DNA of 44,935 bases from a virus. The DNA lies in UHGV virus genome UHGV-0175244; one strand, written 5' to 3'. The notes under the pieces were generated by a model that was not told the origin of the DNA, did not search any database, and saw only the letters and a program-made list of their open reading frames with translations. This document shows, in pieces, positions 26,720 to 43,679 of the stretch (the stretch's first letter is position 1; every line of letters begins with the position of its first letter). The translations under genes and the position numbers were made by a program.

Positions 26720-26794
26720 TGGAGCATCTGGCGGGGATCGAACCCGCATATTCTGGTTGGAAGCCAGACGTAATTACCAAACTACGACAGATGC
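26720..26794 (-). tRNA. Phage-encoded tRNA-Gly (anticodon UCC)
   Basis: A hand-folded cloverleaf gives acceptor GCATCTG/CAGATGC, D stem GTAG/TTAC, anticodon stem TCTGG/CCAGA with loop CTTCCAA, T arm GCGGG-TTCGATC-CCCGC, discriminator U and an encoded CCA. Confidence 0.8.
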
Positions 26795-29332: not shown

Positions 29333-29423
29333 TTAAGTCCCCTTAAATGCGCAGAAGTCACCGGAGTTGTTCAGGCTCCGATGACATGATTATGGACGGT
29401 TGATTCAACAAAATCAACGCGAG

Positions 29424-29444
29424 AAAAAGGCCTCCGGAGAGGCC
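29424..29444 (-). terminator. Rho-independent terminator inside the rightward early operon (tR2-like)
   Basis: Minus strand: GGCCTC-tccg-GAGGCC followed by TTTTT. A 9-bp palindrome hairpin (29451-29472) lies just upstream. Confidence 0.65.
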
Positions 29445-29486
29445 CTGGCTGTCGATATGGGGATTCCCATATCGCTTGTATGGCAG

Positions 29487-33561: not shown

Positions 33562-34643
33562 GCTTTGACTCCCTTGCGCTCACGGTGCTCGTTGATGGCC
33601 TGCTCGTAGACAGATCCCCAGTTCTTCGGATTCAGTATCCAGTCGAGAGTCAGCCATGGCTGATCGCCTCTGGTGCCGAACAGGGAAGACTTGCTAATCA
33701 GCTCGAAGGCCATTCCCATGTGCTTCAGTTCTCGCCAGTTGCCCTGGGTGGTTTTGCCGTTCCACACAGCTTCCAGGTCTCGATAGGCCGGACGGCGGCG
33801 GTTCCACTCATGCAGTGAAACGGCCTTTGAAGGGAATTTTTCATTCCAGAGCTTGATGATCTCTTCGTGCGGACAGGCTGCCGGATTGCTTCCATGACCA
33901 TCTGCCCATATCAGGGCGTCTGACAGGTATCCATCAAAGCGGGTCATACGGCACAGGTTCTCTGGCTTGAAGCTGTGACCCCAGTTCACATGGGCCCAGC
34001 GGATAACGAGTTTCAGCTCTTCAGCGGTGTAGCACTGGTCTTTGCTCTTCACCGTGGAGAGAGCTTTCTCGAAAGGTGCCAGCGCAGCACAACGACTACC
34101 AGTTAGCTCGTTGAAGTAATCCATCACCTCCTGAGCGAGTGAGTTTTCCCCCTTGGGGGATTTAGGGGGATCTTGTCTTTCTGTATTTTGATTATTGTCT
34201 TTTGTGGTTAGCACCTTCTGCTTAGTTCTGTTAGCAACTTCCGCTAAGGTTTTCTTAGCAGGTTTAGCTAATGTTTTGCAGAATCCGTTAACCTTCGTTT
34301 CCCACTCGGAAACATTGGTATTCATGCCCACTTTGCGGCCTTCCTGAATGAATACCTTCTTGCCGATCAGCAGGTTTTTGGCAGTAGAGCAATGCGTGTG
34401 GTGCTTACCAACCATCTGCTCAAGTTGCTCGTTGCTGACCCAATCCGTTTTTTTATTGAAGCCGTATGTTTTGCGCCAGACGGCCAGCACAATGCACATC
34501 TCAGTTTCGCTCAAACCTGAAGCCATAACGGCATCAAGAAGCTCATTCGCGACGCGAGTGAACCCATCTTCCAGTTGCGCCACACGATGCTCCACGACCT
34601 CCAGCGGCGGCCTGTAGTCTGCTAAATGCTTAACGACGCCCAT
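33558..34643 (-). CDS. Replication initiation protein (lambda O-like N-terminal domain)
   Basis: GFTRVANELLDAVMASGLSETEMCIVLAVWRKTYGFNK is a typical phage O N-terminal motif. It lies upstream of the helicase. Confidence 0.8.
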   Translation of the reverse strand: MGVVKHLADYRPPLEVVEHRVAQLEDGFTRVANELLDAVMASGLSETEMCIVLAVWRKTYGFNKKTDWVSNEQLEQMVGKHHTHCSTAKNLLIGKKVFIQEGRKVGMNTNVSEWETKVNGFCKTLAKPAKKTLAEVANRTKQKVLTTKDNNQNTERQDPPKSPKGENSLAQEVMDYFNELTGSRCAALAPFEKALSTVKSKDQCYTAEELKLVIRWAHVNWGHSFKPENLCRMTRFDGYLSDALIWADGHGSNPAACPHEEIIKLWNEKFPSKAVSLHEWNRRRPAYRDLEAVWNGKTTQGNWRELKHMGMAFELISKSSLFGTRGDQPWLTLDWILNPKNWGSVYEQAINEHRERKGVKA

Positions 34644-34797
34644 GCTTCACCCCTGCCTGAATCAGTGCCAGTCTTGCCATGCCAACAAAGCGCTCAGCGA
34701 ACGCCCGGTTTTTTGAGGCAGCGACAACCAGGCCATCTGGTGAATCTGGGTGGCGACGTTCCTCTTTTTCCTGGTACTTTTTGCGAGTTTTTGACAT
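34630..34797 (-). CDS. Small basic hypothetical protein (55 aa)
   Basis: GGAG SD before the ATG at 34797. Confidence 0.45.
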   Translation of the reverse strand: MSKTRKKYQEKEERRHPDSPDGLVVAASKNRAFAERFVGMARLALIQAGVKHGRR

Positions 34798-34885
34798 ACT
34801 TACTCCCGTTACTTGGCGTAACACAGTGTGATAAGGGCCTTTGAAGTGACCGCTTCAAGGGCTTTCGCTTTTTTGGTAGTACCCA

Positions 34886-35452: not shown

Positions 35453-35469
35453 TGCTTTCCCTTTCGTGG

Positions 35470-35819: not shown

Positions 35820-36497
35820 ATGGAAAATAAAGAAATCAGAAAAGCCAACCTGGAAGCGCTGTACGAGAAACGTCAGCACGAATCTGGAATGACCAAGGCG
35901 CAGTTCGCCGAGCTCATCGAGACAAGTCCGGCTGCGCTTAGCCAGCTACTGGGACCAAACCCTCATCGCAATATCGGCGATAAGATGGCTCGCAAAATTG
36001 AAACTGCGCTTGATCTGCCTTTTGGCTGGATGGATGTTTTACACGCCAGTGAAGAACCTTCGAACGTTGCATTTCGAGGACTTAACGAGATAAAAGGAAG
36101 TTATCCTGTGATCAGCTGGGTAAGCGCGGGGCAATGGATGGAAGCTGTAGAACCTTATCACCGAAGAGCGATAGATCGCTGGTATGACACGACCGTTGAT
36201 TGTTCAGAAGATTCATTCTGGCTTGACGTTAAAGGGGATTCTATGACCTCCCCGGCCGGACTGAGCATACCAGAGGGAGCAGCGATACTTGTTGATCCTG
36301 AAGTCGAGCCGCGCAACGGAAAGCTGGTTGTCGCGAAGCTAGAAGGCGATAACGAAGCGACCTTTAAGAAGCTTGTAATCGATGCCGGCAGACGCTTCCT
36401 TAAGCCACTTAACCCCGCGTATCCAATGCTAGAAGTTAATGGAAACTGCAAAATTATTGGCGTTGTGGTCGATGCAAAAATACTAAACATCCCATAA
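35820..36497 (+). CDS. cI: CI-like prophage repressor (HTH + S24/LexA-type autopeptidase)
   Basis: 225 aa from ATG 35820, with an N-terminal HTH and C-terminal GDSM...K (WLDVKGDSMTSP...ATFKKL). Confidence 0.85.
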   Translation: MENKEIRKANLEALYEKRQHESGMTKAQFAELIETSPAALSQLLGPNPHRNIGDKMARKIETALDLPFGWMDVLHASEEPSNVAFRGLNEIKGSYPVISWVSAGQWMEAVEPYHRRAIDRWYDTTVDCSEDSFWLDVKGDSMTSPAGLSIPEGAAILVDPEVEPRNGKLVVAKLEGDNEATFKKLVIDAGRRFLKPLNPAYPMLEVNGNCKIIGVVVDAKILNIP

Positions 36498-36515: not shown

Positions 36516-36541
36516 AAGCCCGCCATTGCGCGGGCTTTTTT
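36516..36541 (+). terminator. Rho-independent terminator of cI
   Basis: GCCCGC-cattgc-GCGGGC followed by TTTTTT. Confidence 0.75.
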
Positions 36542-36580: not shown

Positions 36581-36657
36581 TTAATCAAAAAGCTAAATAA
36601 AATCCGCCAATAATTTAGCATTTTGCTATTGCGCATAATTTAGCATCACGCTAAATT
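36581..36657 (+). promoter_or_regulatory. OL-like operator cluster and candidate pL (TTGCGC -17- TAAATT)
   Basis: Perfect TTTAGCatcacGCTAAA at 36639-36655 lies between -35 (36629-34) and -10 (36652-57). Degenerate copies at 36614-36630 and 36581-36597. Confidence 0.55.
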
Positions 36658-36721
36658 TACCCCATCGAAACGAAACATCGACAGCTGAGCGAAGTTAGCC
36701 AGCGGCGGATAGCGAGTCGCC

Positions 36722-36733
36722 TGCTCATTAAGA
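36722..36733 (+). promoter_or_regulatory. boxA-like element (TGCTCATTAAGA; compare rrn boxA TGCTCTTTAACA)
   Basis: It lies ~60 nt downstream of the predicted pL start. 10 of 12 positions match rrn boxA as I recall it. Confidence 0.35.
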
Positions 36734-36815
36734 ATTCAGTCAAGCAGCAAATCACCCGGAGCGCTCCTGGCAAATTGAAATGGCGCCCAATGGGATTGAG
36801 GCAGGTGTGTAACGC

Positions 36816-36995
36816 GTGGCGGGTATAGCACACGAAGAGGACTCCGCACCGGAATGGTTTGCTGCTCAGTTCCCGAACATCGGGGAATCTTCAGTGGGAA
36901 TGTTTTGGGATTGGATGAATGCGCAGGCTGATGCGCGGGGTGGAGCGGCCCGGGTGGCTACTGAATCAAGACAGGCTGTAAGACAAGCTGTGTAA
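36816..36995 (+). CDS. Possible 59-codon acidic Trp-rich ORF (GTG start), first ORF of the pL operon
   Basis: (M)AGIAHEEDSAPEWFAAQFPNIGESSVGMFWDWMNAQADARGG... Codon choice looks enteric. The SD is weak and the ORF falls below the track threshold. Confidence 0.3.
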   Translation: MAGIAHEEDSAPEWFAAQFPNIGESSVGMFWDWMNAQADARGGAARVATESRQAVRQAV

Positions 36996-37161
36996 ATAAC
37001 TGGTAAGCCGTAGTAGCCAATAAAGCAGGTGAAAATCATAACGTCTATCCCGCTTCGGCGGTGGCAGCTAACACCTGTGATAGTCAATGCCGGAGATCAG
37101 CGCCGGCCATCCAATCACCAAAGCATTTCGATTCATCAACCCACGCAACAAAGGAGCTTCT

Positions 37162-37194
37162 ATGCGACGGCAAAGCTATATCGCTCACAAATAA
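37162..37194 (+). CDS. 10-codon mini-ORF (MRRQSYIAHK) with strong SD, 23 nt upstream of a terminator
   Basis: AAGGAG-cttct-ATG. The stop lies 11 nt before the anti-box at 37205-37216. Confidence 0.3.
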   Translation: MRRQSYIAHK

Positions 37195-37216
37195 TCGGTA
37201 CCACAAATGCTTTCGG

Positions 37217-37241
37217 AAACCCCGGCGATGTCGGGGTTTTT
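37217..37241 (+). terminator. Rho-independent terminator (tL1-like)
   Basis: AAACCCCG-gcgatgt-CGGGGTTT followed by TT. Confidence 0.7.
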
Positions 37242-37247
37242 GGTGAG

Positions 37248-37350
37248 TGCTTTGGGTTGGCAGACGGTTATCAGCTAGTTGGTGAGGTAATGGCTCACCA
37301 AGGCGACGACGACCTTCCCCGCTTCATTGTGGGGAGCCAGCGCCAAAGCA
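37248..37350 (+). ncRNA. Structured RNA element: 14-bp closing helix plus 16S-rRNA-helix-11-like hairpin plus second hairpin
   Basis: 37248-37261 pairs with 37336-37350 (one bulge, one G-U). Hairpins at 37279-37301 and 37316-37335. 37273-37309 matches 16S rRNA from memory. Confidence 0.4.
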
Positions 37351-37389
37351 TTTCTCCCGCATCAGCGGGTAACGACAGAGGGTAAGGCG

Positions 37390-37557
37390 ATGAGAAACAC
37401 AACAGATAAATATGCTGCCGAGTGCAGTGAAGATTACAGGCAGTATCGCAAAAAATGTCGAGCATCAGTGCGTGGTGATGGGTTTCATGACCTTTGGGTA
37501 AAGCTGGCATGGATGTGCCGACGCAACGCACGAGAATGGATTAACAGAGCCGCCTAA
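37390..37557 (+). CDS. Small basic hypothetical protein (55 aa)
   Basis: MRNTTDKYAAECSEDYRQYRKKCRASVRGDGFHDLWVKLAWMCRRNAREWINRAA. GAGGGTAAGG SD. A terminator follows. Confidence 0.55.
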   Translation: MRNTTDKYAAECSEDYRQYRKKCRASVRGDGFHDLWVKLAWMCRRNAREWINRAA

Positions 37558-37571
37558 CCAGCGGCTTTTTT
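37548..37571 (+). terminator. Rho-independent terminator (tL2-like)
   Basis: AGCCGC-ctaacca-GCGGCT followed by TTTTT, overlapping the stop codon of the 55-aa ORF. Confidence 0.7.
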
Positions 37572-37707
37572 CATACCTCAGTCGCTTCACCGAGGCGGCT
37601 TAGTTATGACAATCGGCGGCCATCCACCGCCCATTGAAACACTGAATAAATGCGTTGAAGTCTTGTATTAACCGTTCGGCGGCGCGGCCTTAAGCGCGGA
37701 GATGATT

Positions 37708-38064
37708 ATGAAATACACCATGAAGGTTTATAAAAACTCTGATGACCATGCTGCTTATCTGAAAGCGCGATCCGACAGCGCCAGAAATGGCCAGTCATTT
37801 GAATGGGCGGGTCACCGCTGGGCGTACGAAGTCACCAGTTTTGACGATGCCGGCGATTACGACCTGCTTTACCGGTTTGATGACAAGCCATATCCAGAAG
37901 AAGTTTCAGTCACTACAGATGACATGACGATCCGTGACTACTTTGCGGCCAAGGCTATGCAGGGAATCATCAGCAGCGAATGCAAATATGGAGCGTTTAG
38001 TTATTTAGCAAGCGATGCATACAGCATTGCCGACGCAATGCTCCGCGCCCGGGAGGCATCATGA
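37708..38064 (+). CDS. Hypothetical phage protein (118 aa)
   Basis: GGAG sits 6 nt before the ATG at 37708 (alternative start 37702). The C-terminus IRDYFAAKAMQGII...AYSIADAMLRAR is a pattern common in phage early proteins. Confidence 0.65.
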   Translation: MKYTMKVYKNSDDHAAYLKARSDSARNGQSFEWAGHRWAYEVTSFDDAGDYDLLYRFDDKPYPEEVSVTTDDMTIRDYFAAKAMQGIISSECKYGAFSYLASDAYSIADAMLRAREAS

Positions 38065-38225
38065 CAGTCACCCACAACGGCAGGCAGTACACCTTTAAGC
38101 GCTGCGCCATGAACGATAACGAATGGCGGCTAACGTCGATCACCAATCTGCGAGAGCAGGTCACACTGAACAGCGGGCAGATGCACATTGCTGGCTTACT
38201 GGCCCAGGTGGAGGGTAAAAAATGA
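38061..38225 (+). CDS. Hypothetical protein (54 aa)
   Basis: Not in the track. ATGA coupling at both ends (MTVTHNGRQYTFKRCAMNDNEWRL...). Confidence 0.5.
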   Translation: MTVTHNGRQYTFKRCAMNDNEWRLTSITNLREQVTLNSGQMHIAGLLAQVEGKK

Positions 38226-38425
38226 TGCACCACTACGGGTACGTTGAAGTTAACCGCGGCGCAGTTCAGCCAGGCATGCTTGTTAAGCACAAAGATGGCA
38301 TGTGGACGGCATCAGCCAATAAGCGCGGAAAGCTCTACCTCCATCGAGGTTGTGAGCGCACCTTCACCAGAGAGCTTCTGGTTGAGGTGTATCTTGATGG
38401 CCTCGGCGGCGGATTGAGTCATTAA
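38222..38425 (+). CDS. Hypothetical protein (67 aa)
   Basis: Translationally coupled ORF. Confidence 0.55.
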   Translation: MMHHYGYVEVNRGAVQPGMLVKHKDGMWTASANKRGKLYLHRGCERTFTRELLVEVYLDGLGGGLSH

Positions 38426-38429
38426 CCCA

Positions 38430-38744
38430 TTAATTGTTTGGGCCGCGAGGTGCAAGCTTAAACTCCAGATGATACAGCTTGCCGTCAGGTGCCTGGAAGT
38501 CGACCTCGAATGAACCCGGCGGATTGAATGGGTCAGGTGCGTTTCTTGCGATACACGTAGAACGCCATGCAATATGACCATTCTTGCCTAAGCCAAGCGA
38601 TCGTGACTTCCACCAGTCATACCATGATTGATCATGCGGCTGGTCACTTCCCTTTTCTCTCACAAACCAATGATTCCGCTTCGAGCGCTTGCCCATTTCA
38701 TCATTTGGGTACATCGGGGTTGGCAGTTTCTTATCAATCAGCAT
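38430..38744 (-). CDS. Orphan hypothetical protein (104 aa) encoded antisense to the pL operon
   Basis: AGGTGA SD 4 nt before the ATG. It fills an otherwise empty 450-bp gap and its codon usage looks coding. No family recognised. Confidence 0.55.
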   Translation of the reverse strand: MLIDKKLPTPMYPNDEMGKRSKRNHWFVREKGSDQPHDQSWYDWWKSRSLGLGKNGHIAWRSTCIARNAPDPFNPPGSFEVDFQAPDGKLYHLEFKLAPRGPNN

Positions 38745-38877
38745 CTGGTCACCTGGTTATTGCCGTTTCGCTAGAAACATTCTGCGCCAGCATTCTGATA
38801 AATCAAGTTTCACATTTATAGACCGGGCTGGCTTTAACCGGCCTGGTGACCCACGTCAAAATTTCAGGAGTTCAGCC

Positions 38878-39162
38878 ATGAACGCATACCTCACTTACGA
38901 CCGCATCGAAGATCGGCGCTGGGTTGAGCAGCAGCTCGACGACGAGAAAGAGAAGTGGATCGACGACCGGGCGCAGGAAATTATCGACACCCTGCCGAAA
39001 GAGCCGTCAGGCCTGTTCCGCTTCTCTGTACCGATGGACAAAAGCCCATATGAAGGCCTCCGCAGCGATGCAGCTGGCGAGGCATATAACGATCTCATTT
39101 CGGCAGTAGCTTACGCCCAGGCGGAATACGACTGGGATCACCGCACCGGCTGCCCGTTTTAA
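38878..39162 (+). CDS. gam: Gam-like protein (N-terminus resembles lambda GamS)
   Basis: MNAYLTYDRIEDRRW compares with lambda MNAYYIQDRLEAQSW. The upstream SD region also reads FRSSA as in lambda. It lies immediately upstream of bet-exo. The C-terminal two thirds are divergent. Confidence 0.5.
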   Translation: MNAYLTYDRIEDRRWVEQQLDDEKEKWIDDRAQEIIDTLPKEPSGLFRFSVPMDKSPYEGLRSDAAGEAYNDLISAVAYAQAEYDWDHRTGCPF

Positions 39163-39177
39163 CTTTGGGGAATAGCA

Positions 39178-40023
39178 ATGGCTAACGAACTTGTGATTAC
39201 AGCCAGCTCTCTTGCTGAGCGAGGAATTGACGGCGCTACCTGGAGCGCCCTCAAGAACAGTATTTATCCTGGCGCCAAGGATGAGTCGGTGATGATGGCG
39301 CTTGACTACTGCCGGGCCAGAAACCTTGATCCTCTTCTGAAGCCCGTTCATCTGGTGCCAATGAGCGTTAAGGACTCGAAGTCGGGTAAAAGCGAGTGGC
39401 GCGATGTGGTTATGCCGGGCATCGGGCTTTATCGGATTCAGGCCGATCGCTCCGGTTCTTACGCTGGCGCAAAAGAACCAGAGTTCGGCCCGGACGTCAC
39501 TCTGACGCTTACCGGTATTGAGGTGACCGTACCTCAATGGTGCAAGTACACGGTCAGCAAGCGCATGCCGAGCGGGGAAATCGTCGAATTCAGCGCGAAA
39601 GAATACTGGGTTGAGAACTATGCCACCGCCGGCCGCGACACTACCGCGCCAAACGCAATGTGGAAAAAGCGCCCTTATGGCCAGCTGGCGAAGTGTGCCG
39701 AGGCTCAGGCTCTGCGTAAGGCGTGGCCTGAAATTGGCCAGCAGCCCACTGCCGAAGAGATGGAAGGTAAAACACTGGAAGTTGATGCGCGTGACGTAAC
39801 GCCGCGCAGCACTACCGAGGCACTCCCCCTGGTGGCCAGTGAGGAAACGCTGCAGGCAATTACCGACCTCCTGACGTCCCTGAATAAGGACTGGGAGCAG
39901 GACTTCCTGCCTCTGTGCAGCAACATCTTCAAGCGTGACATTTTCCAGGCATCACAACTCACCGAAGAAGAAGCGCAGAAAGGCTTTAGCTTCCTCCAGA
40001 AAAAAGCGCAGGTGGCAGCATGA
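39178..40023 (+). CDS. bet: Bet (Red-beta)/RecT-superfamily single-strand annealing protein
   Basis: The C-terminal ~60 aa ([47 protein letters not shown]) is close to the lambda Bet C-terminus. The N-terminal domain is only distantly Bet-like. Confidence 0.75.
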
Positions 40024-40700
40024 CACCAGAAATTATCCTCGAACGAACTGGCATTGACGTTACCCGCGTTGAACAGGGAGATGAATCCTGGCACCGCTTA
40101 CGCCTCGGAGTGATCACTGCCTCGGAAGTTCACAACGTCATTTCTAAGCCTAAGTCAGGCAAGAAATGGACTGATATGAAGATGTCCTACTTCCTTACGC
40201 TCCTTGCCGAAGTGTGCACCGGCGTGGCGCCGGAAGTTAACGCCAAGGCGCTGGCCTGGGGGAAACAGTATGAGGCCGATGCTCGCACCCTGTTTGAGTT
40301 CACCACCGACGTGCAGGTAACCGAGTCGCCGATCCTTTTCCGTGACGAAGGCATGCGTACCGCCTGCTCACCTGATGGCCTGTGCAGTGATGGTCGCGGC
40401 CTTGAGCTGAAGTGCCCTTTCACCTCTCGCGACTTCATGAAATTCAGGCTTGGCGGCTTCGAGGCTATCAAATCCGCCTATATGGCCCAGGTGCAATTCA
40501 GCATGTGGGTAACCGGGAAGGATGCCTGGTATTTCGCGAATTATGACCCTCGCATGAAGCGAGAAGGCATTCACCATGTCGTTGTTGAGCGCGACGACAA
40601 ATACATGTCCGATTTCAACGAAATGGTGCCGGAGTTCATCAGCAAGATGGACGAATCTCTGGCGGAGATCGGCTTTACCTTCGGGGAGCAGTGGAAATGA
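40020..40700 (+). CDS. exo: Lambda-type exonuclease (Red-alpha)
   Basis: 226 aa, near-colinear with lambda Exo as recalled ([14 protein letters not shown]...[15 protein letters not shown]...[31 protein letters not shown]). Confidence 0.9.
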
Positions 40701-41125
40701 AACGCACTCCATTTTACCGCAGGCCTGGCAAAGCAGGGAAATTCTCCGGCCTTCGCGAGCGCGTGATCTGGATGATTCAGACGCGCGGCCGCCCTGTTAC
40801 CGGCAGCGAAATAGCGGAGAAGTTCGGCGTGACGCTTGTCGAATTTAACCGCGTTGCGAACGGCATAACCAAGGGGGAAGGCCGCATTGCGCAGCTGGTC
40901 GCATCGGAAACCTGGCTCAACGAGGACGGCATCTGCGATCGCACCTTTGACCTGATCACAAGGCCAAAGGTCATTACCCCGCAGGGTAAAACGCGCCTGT
41001 TCACTAAGCGCTCGATAGCTCAGGCCGCCTCTGGCAACCGCCAGAAATGTATTGATAAAGCGGCCCGGCGCCGCCGGCTTATCGCATCTGGCCTCTATAT
41101 CGATGAAATGGAGTCAGTCCTATGA
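40697..41125 (+). CDS. Hypothetical protein (142 aa)
   Basis: ATGA coupling to exo, possibly with a winged-helix N-terminus. Confidence 0.55.
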
Positions 41126-41778
41126 ACCGCTACTCACTTATCTATGCTGACCCGGCCTGGTCTTACGGGAACACGATCAGCAACGGTGCTGCCGTCGATC
41201 ACTACCCCACCATGAGCCTGCTCGATATGAAGCGGCTCCCGGTGTGGGAGCTCGCCGCGGATAACGCTGTGCTGGCGATGTGGTACACCGGCACCCACAA
41301 CCAGGAGGCGATCGAGCTGGCCGAGGCCTGGGGATTTACGGTGCGCACAATGAAGGGTTTCACCTGGGTGAAGTTGAATCAGCTGGCCGAGCTGCGCATT
41401 ACCAAGGCTCTGGCCGAGGGAGAGATCTCCGACTTTTACGACTTCCTCGACCTGCTGAATGCAGAGACGCGCATGAATGGCGGCAACCACACCCGTGCCA
41501 ATACCGAAGACGTGCTGATCGCCACCCGCGGCGCCGGGCTGGAACGCAAGCACGCTGGCATTAAGCAGGTGATCTACAGCCCGCTCGGAGCGCACAGCGA
41601 GAAACCGTGGGAAGTTCGCCACCGCCTGGAACTGCTCTACGGCGACGTGCCGCGGATTGAGTTATTCAGCCGCAGCGCAGCGCCAGGCTGGAGCCACTGG
41701 GGTAACCAATGCGCCACCGCTTCCGTTGAGCTGATCCCCGGCTGCGCCATCGACGTTGTGAAGACGGAGGCAGCATGA
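41122..41778 (+). CDS. MT-A70-family DNA N6-adenine methyltransferase (orphan)
   Basis: IYADPAW (a DPPW-type motif) near the N-terminus and HSEKP near the C-terminus. No partner restriction gene is present. Confidence 0.75.
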   Translation: MNRYSLIYADPAWSYGNTISNGAAVDHYPTMSLLDMKRLPVWELAADNAVLAMWYTGTHNQEAIELAEAWGFTVRTMKGFTWVKLNQLAELRITKALAEGEISDFYDFLDLLNAETRMNGGNHTRANTEDVLIATRGAGLERKHAGIKQVIYSPLGAHSEKPWEVRHRLELLYGDVPRIELFSRSAAPGWSHWGNQCATASVELIPGCAIDVVKTEAA

Positions 41779-41993
41779 CGCCAGAAGAAAAGAAAAATGC
41801 GCTCAGAAGCATCGCACGCAGGGCTAACGATGAGGTTAAGGCAAAACGGCGGTCATCTCCCGCTTTAAGTTGCGACGAGATATCACGACCGATCCTCAAC
41901 GGATGCATGCCGCTGATAAAGCAGCTTGGGTTAACGCCAAGCCATCTCTATGTGGAAATCGGCATTTTGAACGGAAAGATAAAGGAGCGCTGA
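41775..41993 (+). CDS. Hypothetical protein (72 aa)
   Basis: Coupled ORF. Confidence 0.5.
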   Translation: MTPEEKKNALRSIARRANDEVKAKRRSSPALSCDEISRPILNGCMPLIKQLGLTPSHLYVEIGILNGKIKER

Positions 41994-41994
41994 C

Positions 41995-42210
41995 ATGCCA
42001 GAAATCATCGATCAGGCCAACGAGCTGGCAGAGCGCCGGCTTGAAATGACCATCCAGAACATGCGCATCAACCATGCGGCGGTTTCAGCTACTCACTGCC
42101 GCGACTGCGGGGAAGAGATACCCGAGCGGCGCCGGGAACTGGTGGCGGGCTGCCAGCGCTGTGCTGACTGTCAGGAAGAAGAGGAATTACGCGGTAAGCA
42201 TCGGAGGTGA
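41995..42210 (+). CDS. TraR/DksA-family C4 zinc-finger protein
   Basis: CRDCGEEIPERRRELVAGCQRCADC is the typical TraR/DksA zinc finger. Confidence 0.75.
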   Translation: MPEIIDQANELAERRLEMTIQNMRINHAAVSATHCRDCGEEIPERRRELVAGCQRCADCQEEEELRGKHRR

Positions 42211-42211
42211 T

Positions 42212-42547
42212 ATGGCATCTGACAAACCGATAACAGCACAGCAGGCCGCCGATTTGCTCATCGTGTCTGCGCGGGTGATCTACCGCCTGATTGAGTCTGG
42301 GGAGCTCGCCGGCCGCAAGGTCGGCAATAAGTACAGAACGACCGAGGCTGCGTGTATTGCATATTTGAAAACCCCGCGCGATCCTGTCATCGCGAACGCG
42401 GGTGAACATAAAGGAGAAGTTTTATGTCAATCACCCTCAGGGGCGGCGTGTGGCACTGTCATTTCTTTACGCCGTCAGGAAAAAGAGTTAGGCGATCTCT
42501 TGGCACGGGGGACAAAAAGCAGGCTCAGGAGCTCCACGACAAGCTGA
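42212..42547 (+). CDS. xis: Excisionase-like HTH protein
   Basis: GGAGG SD before the ATG at 42212. [32 protein letters not shown] is an excisionase/MerR-type HTH. The tail overlaps the int start. Confidence 0.6.
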
Positions 42548-43587
42548 AGGCGGAAGCGTGGCGGGTTGACCAGATCGGCGACCTGCCCGTCAGAACCTTT
42601 GAAGAGTGCTGCATCCGGTGGCTGCGGGAAAAGGACCATAAGCGATCTCTGGATGATGACAAAACCAAAATTGTTTTTTGGCTGCAGCATTTTTCCGGCC
42701 GTGATGTCTCGAAGATAACGGCGGAGGAAGTTCACGAAGCCGTTAACGGGATGATCAACCGTAAGCACCTGCAGGTGTGGGAGAGTAAGCGTGATGCCGC
42801 GATGAGGAAGGGAAAGCCGGTTCCGGAGTACAAACCACGGCAGGTTTCGCAGGCTACGAAGGCGCAACACCTTTCCTTCATTCGTTCCCTTCTCAGGGCC
42901 GCGGCGAATGACTGGGGCTGGATAAAAACAGCTCCTGTTATCAAAACCCGCAAGCCGATCAGTAAGCGGATACGATGGCTGACCAGAGAAGAAGCTGAGC
43001 GGTTGATCGAGTGCATGCCGGAGAGCATTAAGCCAGTGGTGATATTTGCACTGGCAACCGGCCTGCGCCGCTCAAACATCATCGGGCTTGAGTGGCAGCA
43101 GGTCGATATGCAGAGAAAGGTTGCATGGGTAAATCCGGAGAACGCAAAAGCGGGCAAGGCGATTGGCGTGGCTCTGAATGATACCGCATGCAGGGTATTA
43201 AGGGATCAGATAGGGAAGCACTCCCGGTGGGTGTTCGTTCACACCACGGCTAAGCATCGCCCTGATGGAACACTAACGCCCGCGGTTAGAAAAATGCGGG
43301 TGGATGACAATAACGCCTGGCGCGCCGGGTTGAAAAAAGCGGGGATCGAGGATTTCCGTTTTCACGACCTCCGGCACACCTGGGCGAGTTGGCTGATCCA
43401 GTCCGGCGTCCCGCTTTCTGTTTTACAGGAAATGGGAGGATGGGAGAGCATCGAGATGGTACGTCGTTATGCTCACCTGGCGCCGAACCACCTGACCGAA
43501 CACGCACGGAAAATTGACGCCATTTTTGGCGCTAGCGACACAAATACGACACAAGGAGGAAATCAGGCTGGTTTAAAACTGGCGTAA
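42424..43587 (+). CDS. int: Tyrosine integrase
   Basis: 387 aa with C-terminal [39 protein letters not shown]. It lies adjacent to the tRNA/att. Confidence 0.92.
43534..43555 (-). promoter_or_regulatory. Candidate integrase arm-type sites inside the 3' end of int
   Basis: The minus strand reads TTGTGTCGTatTTGTGTCGCT (11-bp period), the same 9-mer as at 1909-1929 and inverted relative to it. Confidence 0.4.
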
Positions 43588-43601: not shown

Positions 43602-43647
43602 ATGGCACGCCCTACAGGATTCGAACCTGTGACCTACGGCTTAGAAG
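43602..43647. repeat. attR: att core within the intact tRNA-Arg gene
   Basis: Identical to 1804-1849. Confidence 0.92.
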
Positions 43648-43679
43648 GCCGTTGCTCTATCCAGCTGAGCTAAGGGCGC
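43603..43679 (-). tRNA. argU: tRNA-Arg (anticodon UCU), argU-like
   Basis: 77 nt GCGCCCTTAGCTCAGCTGGATAGAGCAACGGCCTTCTAAGCCGTAGGTCACAGGTTCGAATCCTGTAGGGCGTGCCA. It folds as a cloverleaf and is close to E. coli argU as recalled. Confidence 0.92.

Follow-up and report, generated by a model that had tools for sequence, protein, structure and literature searches.

Processive antitermination in phages has so far been explained by the N protein acting together with nut sites, by Q, or by the put RNA of HK022 and HK639. The put RNA acts without Nus factors, via the β′ zinc-binding domain (PMC9378689), and the Nus-dependent mEpimmI phages use the N-like protein Gp17 with nut sites (PMC11893012). We have now analyzed the start of the early-left (pL) operon in the virus genome UHGV-0175244, a lambdoid prophage whose whole 44,935-nucleotide (nt) stretch is called the window below. 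The region 36629–37572 is the pL 5′ leader of a phi80/HK639-like lambdoid prophage and is made of exchangeable cassettes. The first-pass annotation had described it as about 1 kb of weakly coding sequence with a boxA-like element, two intrinsic terminators and no recognizable N, and had proposed either a very divergent protein antiterminator or an RNA-based, put-like mechanism. We found that the leader carries a conserved structured RNA, the W RNA, in the position which is occupied by put in HK639. In our judgment, there is about an even chance that the W RNA is the cis-acting antitermination determinant of this leader and that it uses host Nus factors.

The leader is a mosaic of blocks shared with phi80 and HK639. 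Positions 36657–36734, which reach from the pL −10 element through the annotated nutL boxA of phi80, are 92% identical to phi80 (JX871397; 1501–1578 of locus L001 in our collection). Positions 37338–37393 are 96% identical to the hairpin and ribosome-binding site preceding phi80 gene 'N', and positions 37548–37677 are 89% identical to the phi80 terminator tL1A and the sequence after it. HK639 (HM208537) has the first and the last of these phi80-shared blocks in common with the window, and a 'putL-like antiterminator RNA' is annotated there between the equivalent of position 36708 and the next junction. Differing subsets of the leader blocks were found in E. coli prophages, Klebsiella phage KO-TP1 and Enterobacter phages.

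Leaders were collected from IMG/VR by the 44-nt transcript start (36664–36707), which occurs as an exact block in at least 120 loci. This block is common to phi80-type, put-type, window-type and other leaders and spans different immunity regions. According to the sequence that follows it, 58 leaders were classified as phi80-type, 41 as put-type, 23 as window-type and four as others. The block is the 5′ boundary of a slot for exchangeable modules and was always found at its 5′ end, and the 3′ end is either the junction GGAATGTTTTGGG, a hairpin of a cassette or the cargo-slot junction described below. The slot was never empty among 107 leaders, the shortest filling being put with 90 nt. A cro gene of 100% identity was found together with phi80-type (nine loci), put-type (four loci) and window-type (two loci) leaders. 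Since an identical immunity region is combined with three types of module, the modules are exchanged as functional equivalents. The 44-nt block could be either a recombination boundary or an element of the RNA 5′ end; HK022 put operates without it.

The pL promoter had been proposed to overlap a perfect operator, and both were found in place. The −35 hexamer TTGCGC (36629–36634) is separated by 17 nt from the −10 hexamer TAAATT (36652–36657), and the 8 + 5 + 8 palindrome AATTTAGC-ATCAC-GCTAAATT covers 36637–36657. The fit of the promoter to the consensus is weak (three of six positions at −35 and four of six at −10), and a generic promoter scan did not call it.

In the window-type leaders, positions 36664–36891 are 96–99% identical in 21 of the 23 sequences, and this conservation has a sharp 3′ edge after which the leader is variable. 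Scanning with the core sequence TCCTGGCAAANNGAAATGGCNCCCNATGGGATNGAGG retrieved at least 100 further loci including divergent forms: W1b–d, W2a, which lies behind the same 44-nt block, and W2b, which lies behind other promoters and has GCTCTTTAACAA just upstream. Twenty-six representatives were aligned, and the consensus fold computed from them by RNAalifold consists of seven helices. Standard pairs make up 98.3% of the pair cells in this fold, compared with 29–40% when the 3′ partners are slid by 1–3 columns, and compensatory double changes occur in seven pairs, compared with 0–1 in the slid controls. The closing stem P1 has such changes in four of its six consensus pairs. Covariation was also seen at two pairs in the core hairpin, one from A-U to G-C and the other from G-C to A-U; a prospective search for further compensatory variants of this hairpin (Y at the A/G position) returned none. 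When the window copy and a W2b relative of only about 60% identity were folded independently by minimum free energy (MFE), both gave the same architecture, with boxA unpaired.

A covariance model of the family (R2), which comprises boxA, the closing stem, the invariant core, a CCC-AUGGGAU-GAGG hairpin and the terminal hairpin, gave a single match in the window, extending over the whole model, at 36722–36887 (166.3 bits, E = 5e-38; next best E = 0.2), a score which is partly high by construction, as the window sequence is contained in the seed alignment. The homology was also recognized independently of R2 by the pattern scan and the alignment. R2 detected exactly one copy per locus in 100 of 100 other loci. 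We are highly confident that the W RNA family and its fold are real. No Rfam 15 family matched the W RNA of the window or of a relative, either at the gathering threshold or at E values up to 10, and an Rfam scan of the window, HK639, HK022 and one relative returned only tRNAs and chance matches. The W RNA was not found described in the literature searched, which did not extend to King et al. 2011, Rotman et al. 2012 or the papers on phi80 N.

The conserved 166 nt might instead encode a small protein, either the sense micro-open reading frame (ORF) MAPNGIEAGV or an antisense ORF of 55–58 codons, and not act as RNA at all. Antisense frames are indeed open over the full length of the element in most copies, and in the GenBank record of Escherichia phage vB_EcoM-606R2 a 47-codon antisense 'hypothetical protein' is annotated over its 5′ part. 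However, the open antisense frame is not the same in W1 and W2 within the conserved core, it is interrupted by stops in loci L187 and L195, and all four differences between W1 and W2 in the sense micro-ORF make up the two compensatory base pairs of the core hairpin. The W2 form is present in 104 of 5,426 complete E. coli genomes (approximately 2%), and no annotated feature lies under the match in 11 of the 12 E. coli RefSeq matches listed. The coding explanations were rejected on these grounds as highly improbable.

The family is not confined to the phi80/HK639-like backbone. The W1 form was found in three isolated Enterobacter phages, and a W2 query of the phage database matched only four records of the vB_EcoM type. 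A scan of genome contigs with the 17-mer CGCCTGCTCATTAAGAA gave mostly random matches in unrelated phyla and two relevant Enterobacter contigs. In vB_EcoM-606R2 and its IMG/VR relatives, which have an unrelated backbone, the W RNA also heads the early-left operon, and the order of elements is repressor gene, promoter, W RNA, a small or antisense gene, a strong terminator and the operon. In both backgrounds the element is the first one of the early-left transcript, lies 3′ of the repressor gene and is present as a single copy. Across 25 loci of the vB_EcoM-606R2 type, the only window protein with a homologue was the repressor, with 30% identity. A co-inherited protein partner of the W RNA is thus unlikely. 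This search for a partner covered about 7 kb on either side of the sampled loci.

In the W2b relatives (e.g., L192, 3240–3285), a nested stem-loop with the terminator AAAGGCTTCGGGCCTTTT lies within about 10 nt after the RNA, and the ribosome-binding site of the next gene follows directly 3′. This structure could be a conditional terminator or the end of a small RNA (sRNA).

The W RNA begins with a boxA-like motif, as had been noticed previously, which spans 36722–36734 and is the homologue of the annotated 'nutL boxA' of phi80. The window copy deviates from the rrn consensus UGCUCUUUAACAA at two positions (11/13), the relatives match it at 12–13 of 13 positions, and most of them have the rrn-type boxA GCUCUUUAACAA at the equivalent position. 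The distance between boxA and the structured RNA is fixed across the family alignment. The hairpin which abuts boxA on its 5′ side is present in phi80-type leaders as well and missing from the W2b relatives. A conserved, unpaired boxA at a fixed distance from the structured domain points to the recruitment of NusB and NusE.

The two Rho-independent terminators that had been reported ahead of the long pL genes were confirmed by their fold z-scores and by a custom hairpin-plus-U-run scan, which detected both t1 and t2, missed by a generic terminator scan. All 52 window-type leaders, 97% of the put-type leaders and 95% of the phi80-type leaders have one or more intrinsic terminators on the sense strand within 1.5 kb. 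All leader types thus face terminators over this distance, and readthrough is needed. The leader terminators belong to the cargo cassettes. For the block following t2 (37572–37700), some match was present in 162 of 232 loci.

The W RNA resembles the put RNA of HK022 and HK639 in lying within the first 100–250 nt of the pL transcript, ahead of the terminators. Like HK639 put, it occurs once per locus, and put fills an identically bounded slot, from the 44-nt block to GGAATGTTTTGGG, in sister phages whose immunity region can be identical. HK639 put is annotated as an antiterminator RNA in the GenBank record and was reportedly validated by experiment by King et al. in 2011. The shared slot is one of the reasons for regarding the W RNA as a probable antitermination element too. 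In sequence and structure, however, the two have no homology: put is an RNA of about 75 nt with two stem-loops and no boxA, whereas the W RNA is an RNA of 166 nt with at least six helices, led by boxA. The comparison with HK022 putL and putR structures that had been suggested was run as a covariance model (R1) made from these two and seven HK639-type sequences, as Rfam has no put family. R1 recovered one put in every put-type locus (83–102 bits) and none in the phi80-type or window-type loci, and its best score in the window was 7.8 bits (E = 2.2). The put signature (CGAACGGC..GUCGG..GGCG..CAAU within about 70–75 nt and two stem-loops) was likewise not found in the window by R1. The idea of a put-like mechanism in the leader is thus upheld insofar as an RNA element is the most plausible determinant, and it fails insofar as this RNA does not belong to the put family. 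The stretch 36664–36800, which had been singled out for deletion, contains only a part of the W RNA, the remainder of 36722–36887 lying outside it.

The put-type loci (L002, L007 and L008 among them) have one put and no putR according to R1, whereas HK022 has both, and right-operon antitermination in the whole HK639-type phage group is not accounted for by R1 matches. Within the annotated putL-like feature of HK639 (L002, 1400–1435) lies a hairpin, TTTACCAGCAGCTCTTTGCGAGGGGCTGACGGTAAA, which is absent from the window. It is present in only 10 of 39 put-type leaders and after the W1 RNA in 18 of 22 window-type leaders, and it seems to be the 5′ element of an independent gene cassette and not a part of put. 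The second hairpin of HK639 (TTTACCAGCAGC...GGTAAA) was considered as the part of a put pair that the window lacks, and this was rejected, as the hairpin belongs to a cassette of its own and just 10 of 39 put-type leaders have it.

The phi80 pL leader is similar to that of the window from the transcript start through the hairpin and boxA (71 nt, 92% identity), and similar in design in that boxA is followed by a structured domain of about 150–165 nt. The domain itself is unrelated, the similarity ending at 36734; the W domain stands in place of that of phi80, and the phi80 'nutL core' hairpin is absent. The window does not have the phi80 hairpin CACG-UAAA-CGUG, and the phi80 'N' gene is replaced by an unrelated 55-amino-acid (aa) ORFan. 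The phi80-type 'nutL' module (L001, approximately 1557–1725; 50 IMG/VR leaders) is itself a structured RNA of 165–176 nt after boxA. It occurs in two subtypes which are five compensatory pairs apart and have the boxB-like hairpin CACG-UAAA-CGUG or CGCA-CAAAA-UGCG.

The lambda system shares with the window a boxA in the pL leader, the order of the operon and terminators ahead of int and the recombination genes. Unlike lambda, the window has neither an N protein nor an arginine-rich peptide; a 15-nt boxB hairpin with a pentaloop of the GNRA-like kind is missing, and the right operon contains no nutR. The earlier statement that no N is recognizable was corroborated by tblastn with lambda N, P22 gp24 and phi80 N, which revealed no homologue in the whole window (best E = 0.36), and by Pfam and PHROG searches with the leader ORFs, none of which could be assigned to a family. 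Between cro and the cII/YdaT-like gene, where nutR would be expected, the gap was verified to be 17 nt (35453–35469). Comparison of the leader with the right operon gave only chance matches of 9–15 nt as candidates for nutR, and no second copy of the W RNA as a nutR equivalent was found in the right operon when the window was scanned with R2. No boxA with up to three mismatches is present on the − strand of the right operon, the leader copy at 36722–36734 being the sole one.

The W RNA might nevertheless be a nut-type site, that is, a boxA followed by a structured 'boxB equivalent' which is bound by an N analogue encoded elsewhere in the genome. The 92% identity of the 5′ 71 nt, including boxA, to the annotated nutL of phi80 fits this explanation. 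A degenerate boxA such as that of lambda normally needs N for stable Nus assembly. Analogues of N are small and hard to recognize, phi80 'N' itself matching only a PHROG of unknown function. On the other hand, the absence of N homologues and of a nutR equivalent in the window, as described above, speaks against a nut-type site, as does the unrelated backbone in which the W RNA is accompanied by no window protein other than a distant repressor. Moreover, none of the ORF families tracks the type of leader, leaders of the put, phi80 and window types all occur with one and the same immunity and right-operon region, and only 5 of 44 phi80-type leaders contain phi80 'N'. We therefore regard the nut-type explanation as rather unlikely.

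Another alternative was that one of the small leader ORFs, the 59-codon ORF or the 55-aa ORF, encodes a divergent protein antiterminator. In favor of the latter, its position corresponds to the slot of phi80 'N', and its product is basic and shows conservation at the protein level. Neither proposal was borne out. Only the first 25 codons of the 59-codon ORF, which lie inside the W RNA, are kept in other leaders, because sequence conservation ends at the module boundary 36891; its 3′ half belongs to a segment which in E. coli MB20 flanks a gene for a zinc-binding protein on the minus strand. The 55-aa ORF is unrelated to phi80 'N' in spite of the identical slot and, as had been stated for the small ORFs, has no N-like arginine-rich N-terminus. 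Neither ORF matched a Pfam or PHROG family. Since the 55-aa gene lies downstream of t1, its product could not be made before t1 has been passed. It has seven homologues among 5.8 billion proteins, and the substitutions are conservative, which indicates a real but rare cargo gene. Copies of the 55-aa gene follow three put-type leaders, which need no protein, and just one further leader of the window type, whose mosaic is different; a version with 53% identity is present in a single phi80-type leader. The slot which it occupies, after the junction CGGGTAACGACAGAGGG, accommodates at least 38 unrelated protein clusters in 81 leaders, and these assort freely among the leader types; clustering the ORFs across the collected leaders revealed none that was specific to, or tracked, any leader type. 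The leader small ORFs are cargo or remnants, and a role of either candidate as the antiterminator is scarcely credible.

The phi80 gene 'N' (L001, 1918–2214) is also one among the at least 38 unrelated proteins of the cargo slot. Its copies in the five phi80-type leaders are all identical to that of phi80, and the protein has no arginine-rich N-terminus. Its role as an antiterminator merits re-examination.

The closest host counterparts are the rrn leader signal, which works with NusA, NusB, NusE, NusG, SuhB and S4, and other Nus targets of the host that have boxA only. The rrn signal and the W RNA have in common a hairpin directly abutting boxA, a location at the start of a long, poorly translated transcript and no evident phage protein. 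They differ in that boxA of the W RNA is followed by a conserved structured domain of about 145 nt instead of a short boxC, and in that two strong intrinsic terminators have to be passed, whereas the rrn complexes mainly counteract Rho. The order of elements in the rrn leader is boxB hairpin, boxA and boxC (PMC10250234). The sequence GGUGUGU at 36804 was considered as boxC and rejected, as it is about 70 nt downstream of boxA and not conserved in the W2 relatives.

We propose that the single-stranded boxA and the multi-helix domain of the W RNA would act in cis on the nascent pL transcript together with host Nus factors. The resulting complex would read through t1 (37217) and t2 (37548) and would also pass any Rho-dependent termination in the poorly translated 1-kb leader. 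Such readthrough would let kil, gam, the recombination genes, xis and int be expressed with no need for an N protein from the phage. More tentatively, the W RNA may be the founding member of a third, protein-independent class of phage processive-antitermination signals, in which an rrn-type boxA recruiting NusB/E is combined with a dedicated domain that makes the Nus-modified polymerase resist intrinsic terminators, and which is interchangeable by recombination with put and the phi80 nutL module.

Several points weigh against antitermination by the W RNA. Complexes of the rrn type are good against Rho and poor against intrinsic terminators, so that readthrough of t1 and t2 could not be ascribed to boxA only and would require a contribution from the structured domain. 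As a bare motif, boxA is at chance level (12 matches with up to three mismatches in the window, 10.7 expected), and the window copy is the most degenerate of the family. The counts of downstream terminators are similar on the sense and antisense strands, as expected if many of them merely belong to morons. In the right operon, the terminator pair 29424–29472 noted previously was confirmed (z = −4.1), and a motif scan (up to three mismatches) and the covariance models found no boxA, put or W RNA upstream of it; with a strong terminator before ninB and Q and no comparable element, early antitermination is incompletely explained. The covariation comes from three to four clades, and thus from few independent events, and the thermodynamic stability is unremarkable (z = −1.7 for the window copy and −0.3 for the W2b relative). 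A trans-acting phage protein encoded beyond the sampled flanks of about 7 kb is possible. Finally, antitermination by the W RNA has been inferred from comparison.

The last point, together with the association of the terminators with cargo cassettes and their equal frequency on the antisense strand, would also be compatible with another role of the W RNA as a leader or sRNA, in stability or processing, in translational control of the first cassette or as a trans-acting sRNA. The terminators would then attenuate or insulate the cassettes, and enough polymerases would pass them unaided. The W2b stem-loop terminator about 10 nt after the RNA would fit a discrete sRNA of about 215 nt. The element is, however, located exactly in the slot of an RNA annotated as an antiterminator in HK639, a slot which was occupied in every leader compared. 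Recruitment of Nus factors to the elongation complex best accounts for the conserved unpaired boxA, and two strong terminators in series (z = −4.3 and −5.1) before essential lytic, recombination and excision genes argue for active bypass. A role other than antitermination thus seems improbable to us.

The downstream part of the leader looks like a tandem array of cassettes with portable 5′ and 3′ ends. The sequence CCAAAGCATTTC is present twice, at 37118–37129 and 37343–37354. The first copy is followed by a strong Shine-Dalgarno sequence, the mini-ORF MRRQSYIAHK and t1, and the second by the 55-aa gene and t2. The cassette with the mini-ORF (37130–37250) is present in only 6 of 232 loci. Of the MB20 gene flanked by the filler segment 36896–37130, the zinc-binding part is not present in the window.

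The features of the locus are listed in Table 1. A promoter-like sequence, TTGATT-17-CATAAT, lies at 29417–29389 (−), directly 3′ of the right-operon terminator and upstream of ninB...Q; if active, it would render the expression of nin and Q partly independent of pR readthrough. Between O and the cII-like gene, a strong terminator on the strand opposing the right operon (34834–34875, +) has the position of the annotated M3 (oop-like) antisense RNA of phi80. At 34630–34797 (−), a basic 55-aa ORF (MSKTRKKYQEKEERRH...; phrog_1331, unknown function) overlaps the start of O. It was rejected as an N analogue, as it travels with the O allele and not with the leader type. One tRNA gene (26723–26794, −) is located just 3′ of the Q-like gene, within the late-operon leader, and another (43606–43679, −) adjoins the integrase gene and probably marks the attachment site and the end of the prophage.

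Table 1 Features of the pL leader and of the surrounding early region, with positions in the window
Feature	Position	Strand	Basis
pL promoter and operator	36629–36657	+	Sequence; −10 aligns with annotated pL −10 of phi80
Conserved 44-nt 5′ end of pL transcript	36664–36707	+	Exact in IMG/VR loci; shared with phi80 and HK639
Hairpin GGCGG-AUAGCGAG-UCGCC directly abutting boxA	36704–36721	+	MFE fold; alignments
boxA-like motif UGCUCAUUAAGAA (DNA TGCTCATTAAGAA), predicted single-stranded	36722–36734	+	
W RNA: boxA and structured domain of ~145 nt	36722–36887	+	Covariance model R2; alignment; covariation
Closing stem P1 of W RNA	36743–36754 (5′ strand), paired with 36855–36866 (3′ strand)	+	Compensatory changes; MFE fold
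Nearly invariant core of W RNA, UCCUGGCAAA..GAAAUGGC, with hairpin GCCCAAU-GGG-AUUGAGGC (36784–36802)	36765–36802	+	
Terminal hairpin of W RNA, without U-run and hence no terminator	36871–36887	+	Consensus and MFE fold
59-codon ORF, not a gene; straddles W RNA, junction and mosaic segment	36816–36995	+	
Mosaic filler	36896–37130	.	97% identical to flank of minus-strand zinc-binding-protein moron of E. coli MB20
Junction GGAATGTTTTGGG, 3′ boundary of module slot	36897–36909	+	Same junction after put-type and phi80-type modules
10-codon mini-ORF MRRQSYIAHK with Shine-Dalgarno sequence AAGGAG	37162–37194	+	
Intrinsic terminator t1	37217–37243	+	Fold −22.5 kcal/mol, z = −4.3; custom scan
Conserved 5′ junction of cargo slot: CCAAAGCATTTC, hairpin CCCGCAUCAGCGGG, ribosome-binding site	37338–37389	+	96% identical to stretch before phi80 'N' and HK639 gene 44
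55-aa basic ORFan, cargo gene in positional slot of phi80 'N'	37390–37557	+	
Intrinsic terminator t2, homologue of annotated phi80 tL1A	37548–37571	+	z = −5.1; custom scan; 89% identical
Conserved post-terminator block with hairpins 37581–37599 and 37614–37631	37572–37700	+	Shared with phi80, HK639 and HK225
pL operon body: conserved small genes, kil, gam-like, single-strand annealing protein, exonuclease, methyltransferase, xis, int	37702–43587	+	PHROG scans
cI	ends at 36497	+	
Intrinsic terminator of cI transcript, upstream of pL	36516–36537	+	Terminator scan; fold
cro	35703–35470	−	
cII/YdaT-like gene	35452–34886	−	
Further right-operon genes: O, DnaB-like helicase, nin genes		−	
Right-operon hairpin pair just upstream of ninB	29424–29472	−	z = −4.1; second hairpin is a good intrinsic terminator
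Q-like antiterminator gene	27839–27030	−	

The analysis reveals a slot for recombination directly downstream of pL, where unrelated RNA modules, namely put, the phi80-type boxA module and the W RNA, interchange behind identical immunity regions. The W RNA represents a structured family outside Rfam 15 which heads the early operon of an unrelated phage type as well. The 'weakly coding' leader is an array of cargo cassettes, which is relevant to the annotation of prophages. If readthrough is indeed achieved with host factors only, the W RNA would offer a new approach to the question of how resistance to intrinsic terminators can be conferred on Nus complexes, and a compact genetic part for synthetic operons. 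If it represents a third class of signals, an RNA would do what lambda N does as a protein. As a corollary, the phi80-type 'nutL' module may work likewise and phi80 'N' may be a mere cargo gene, which would be a reason to reconsider the function assigned to it.

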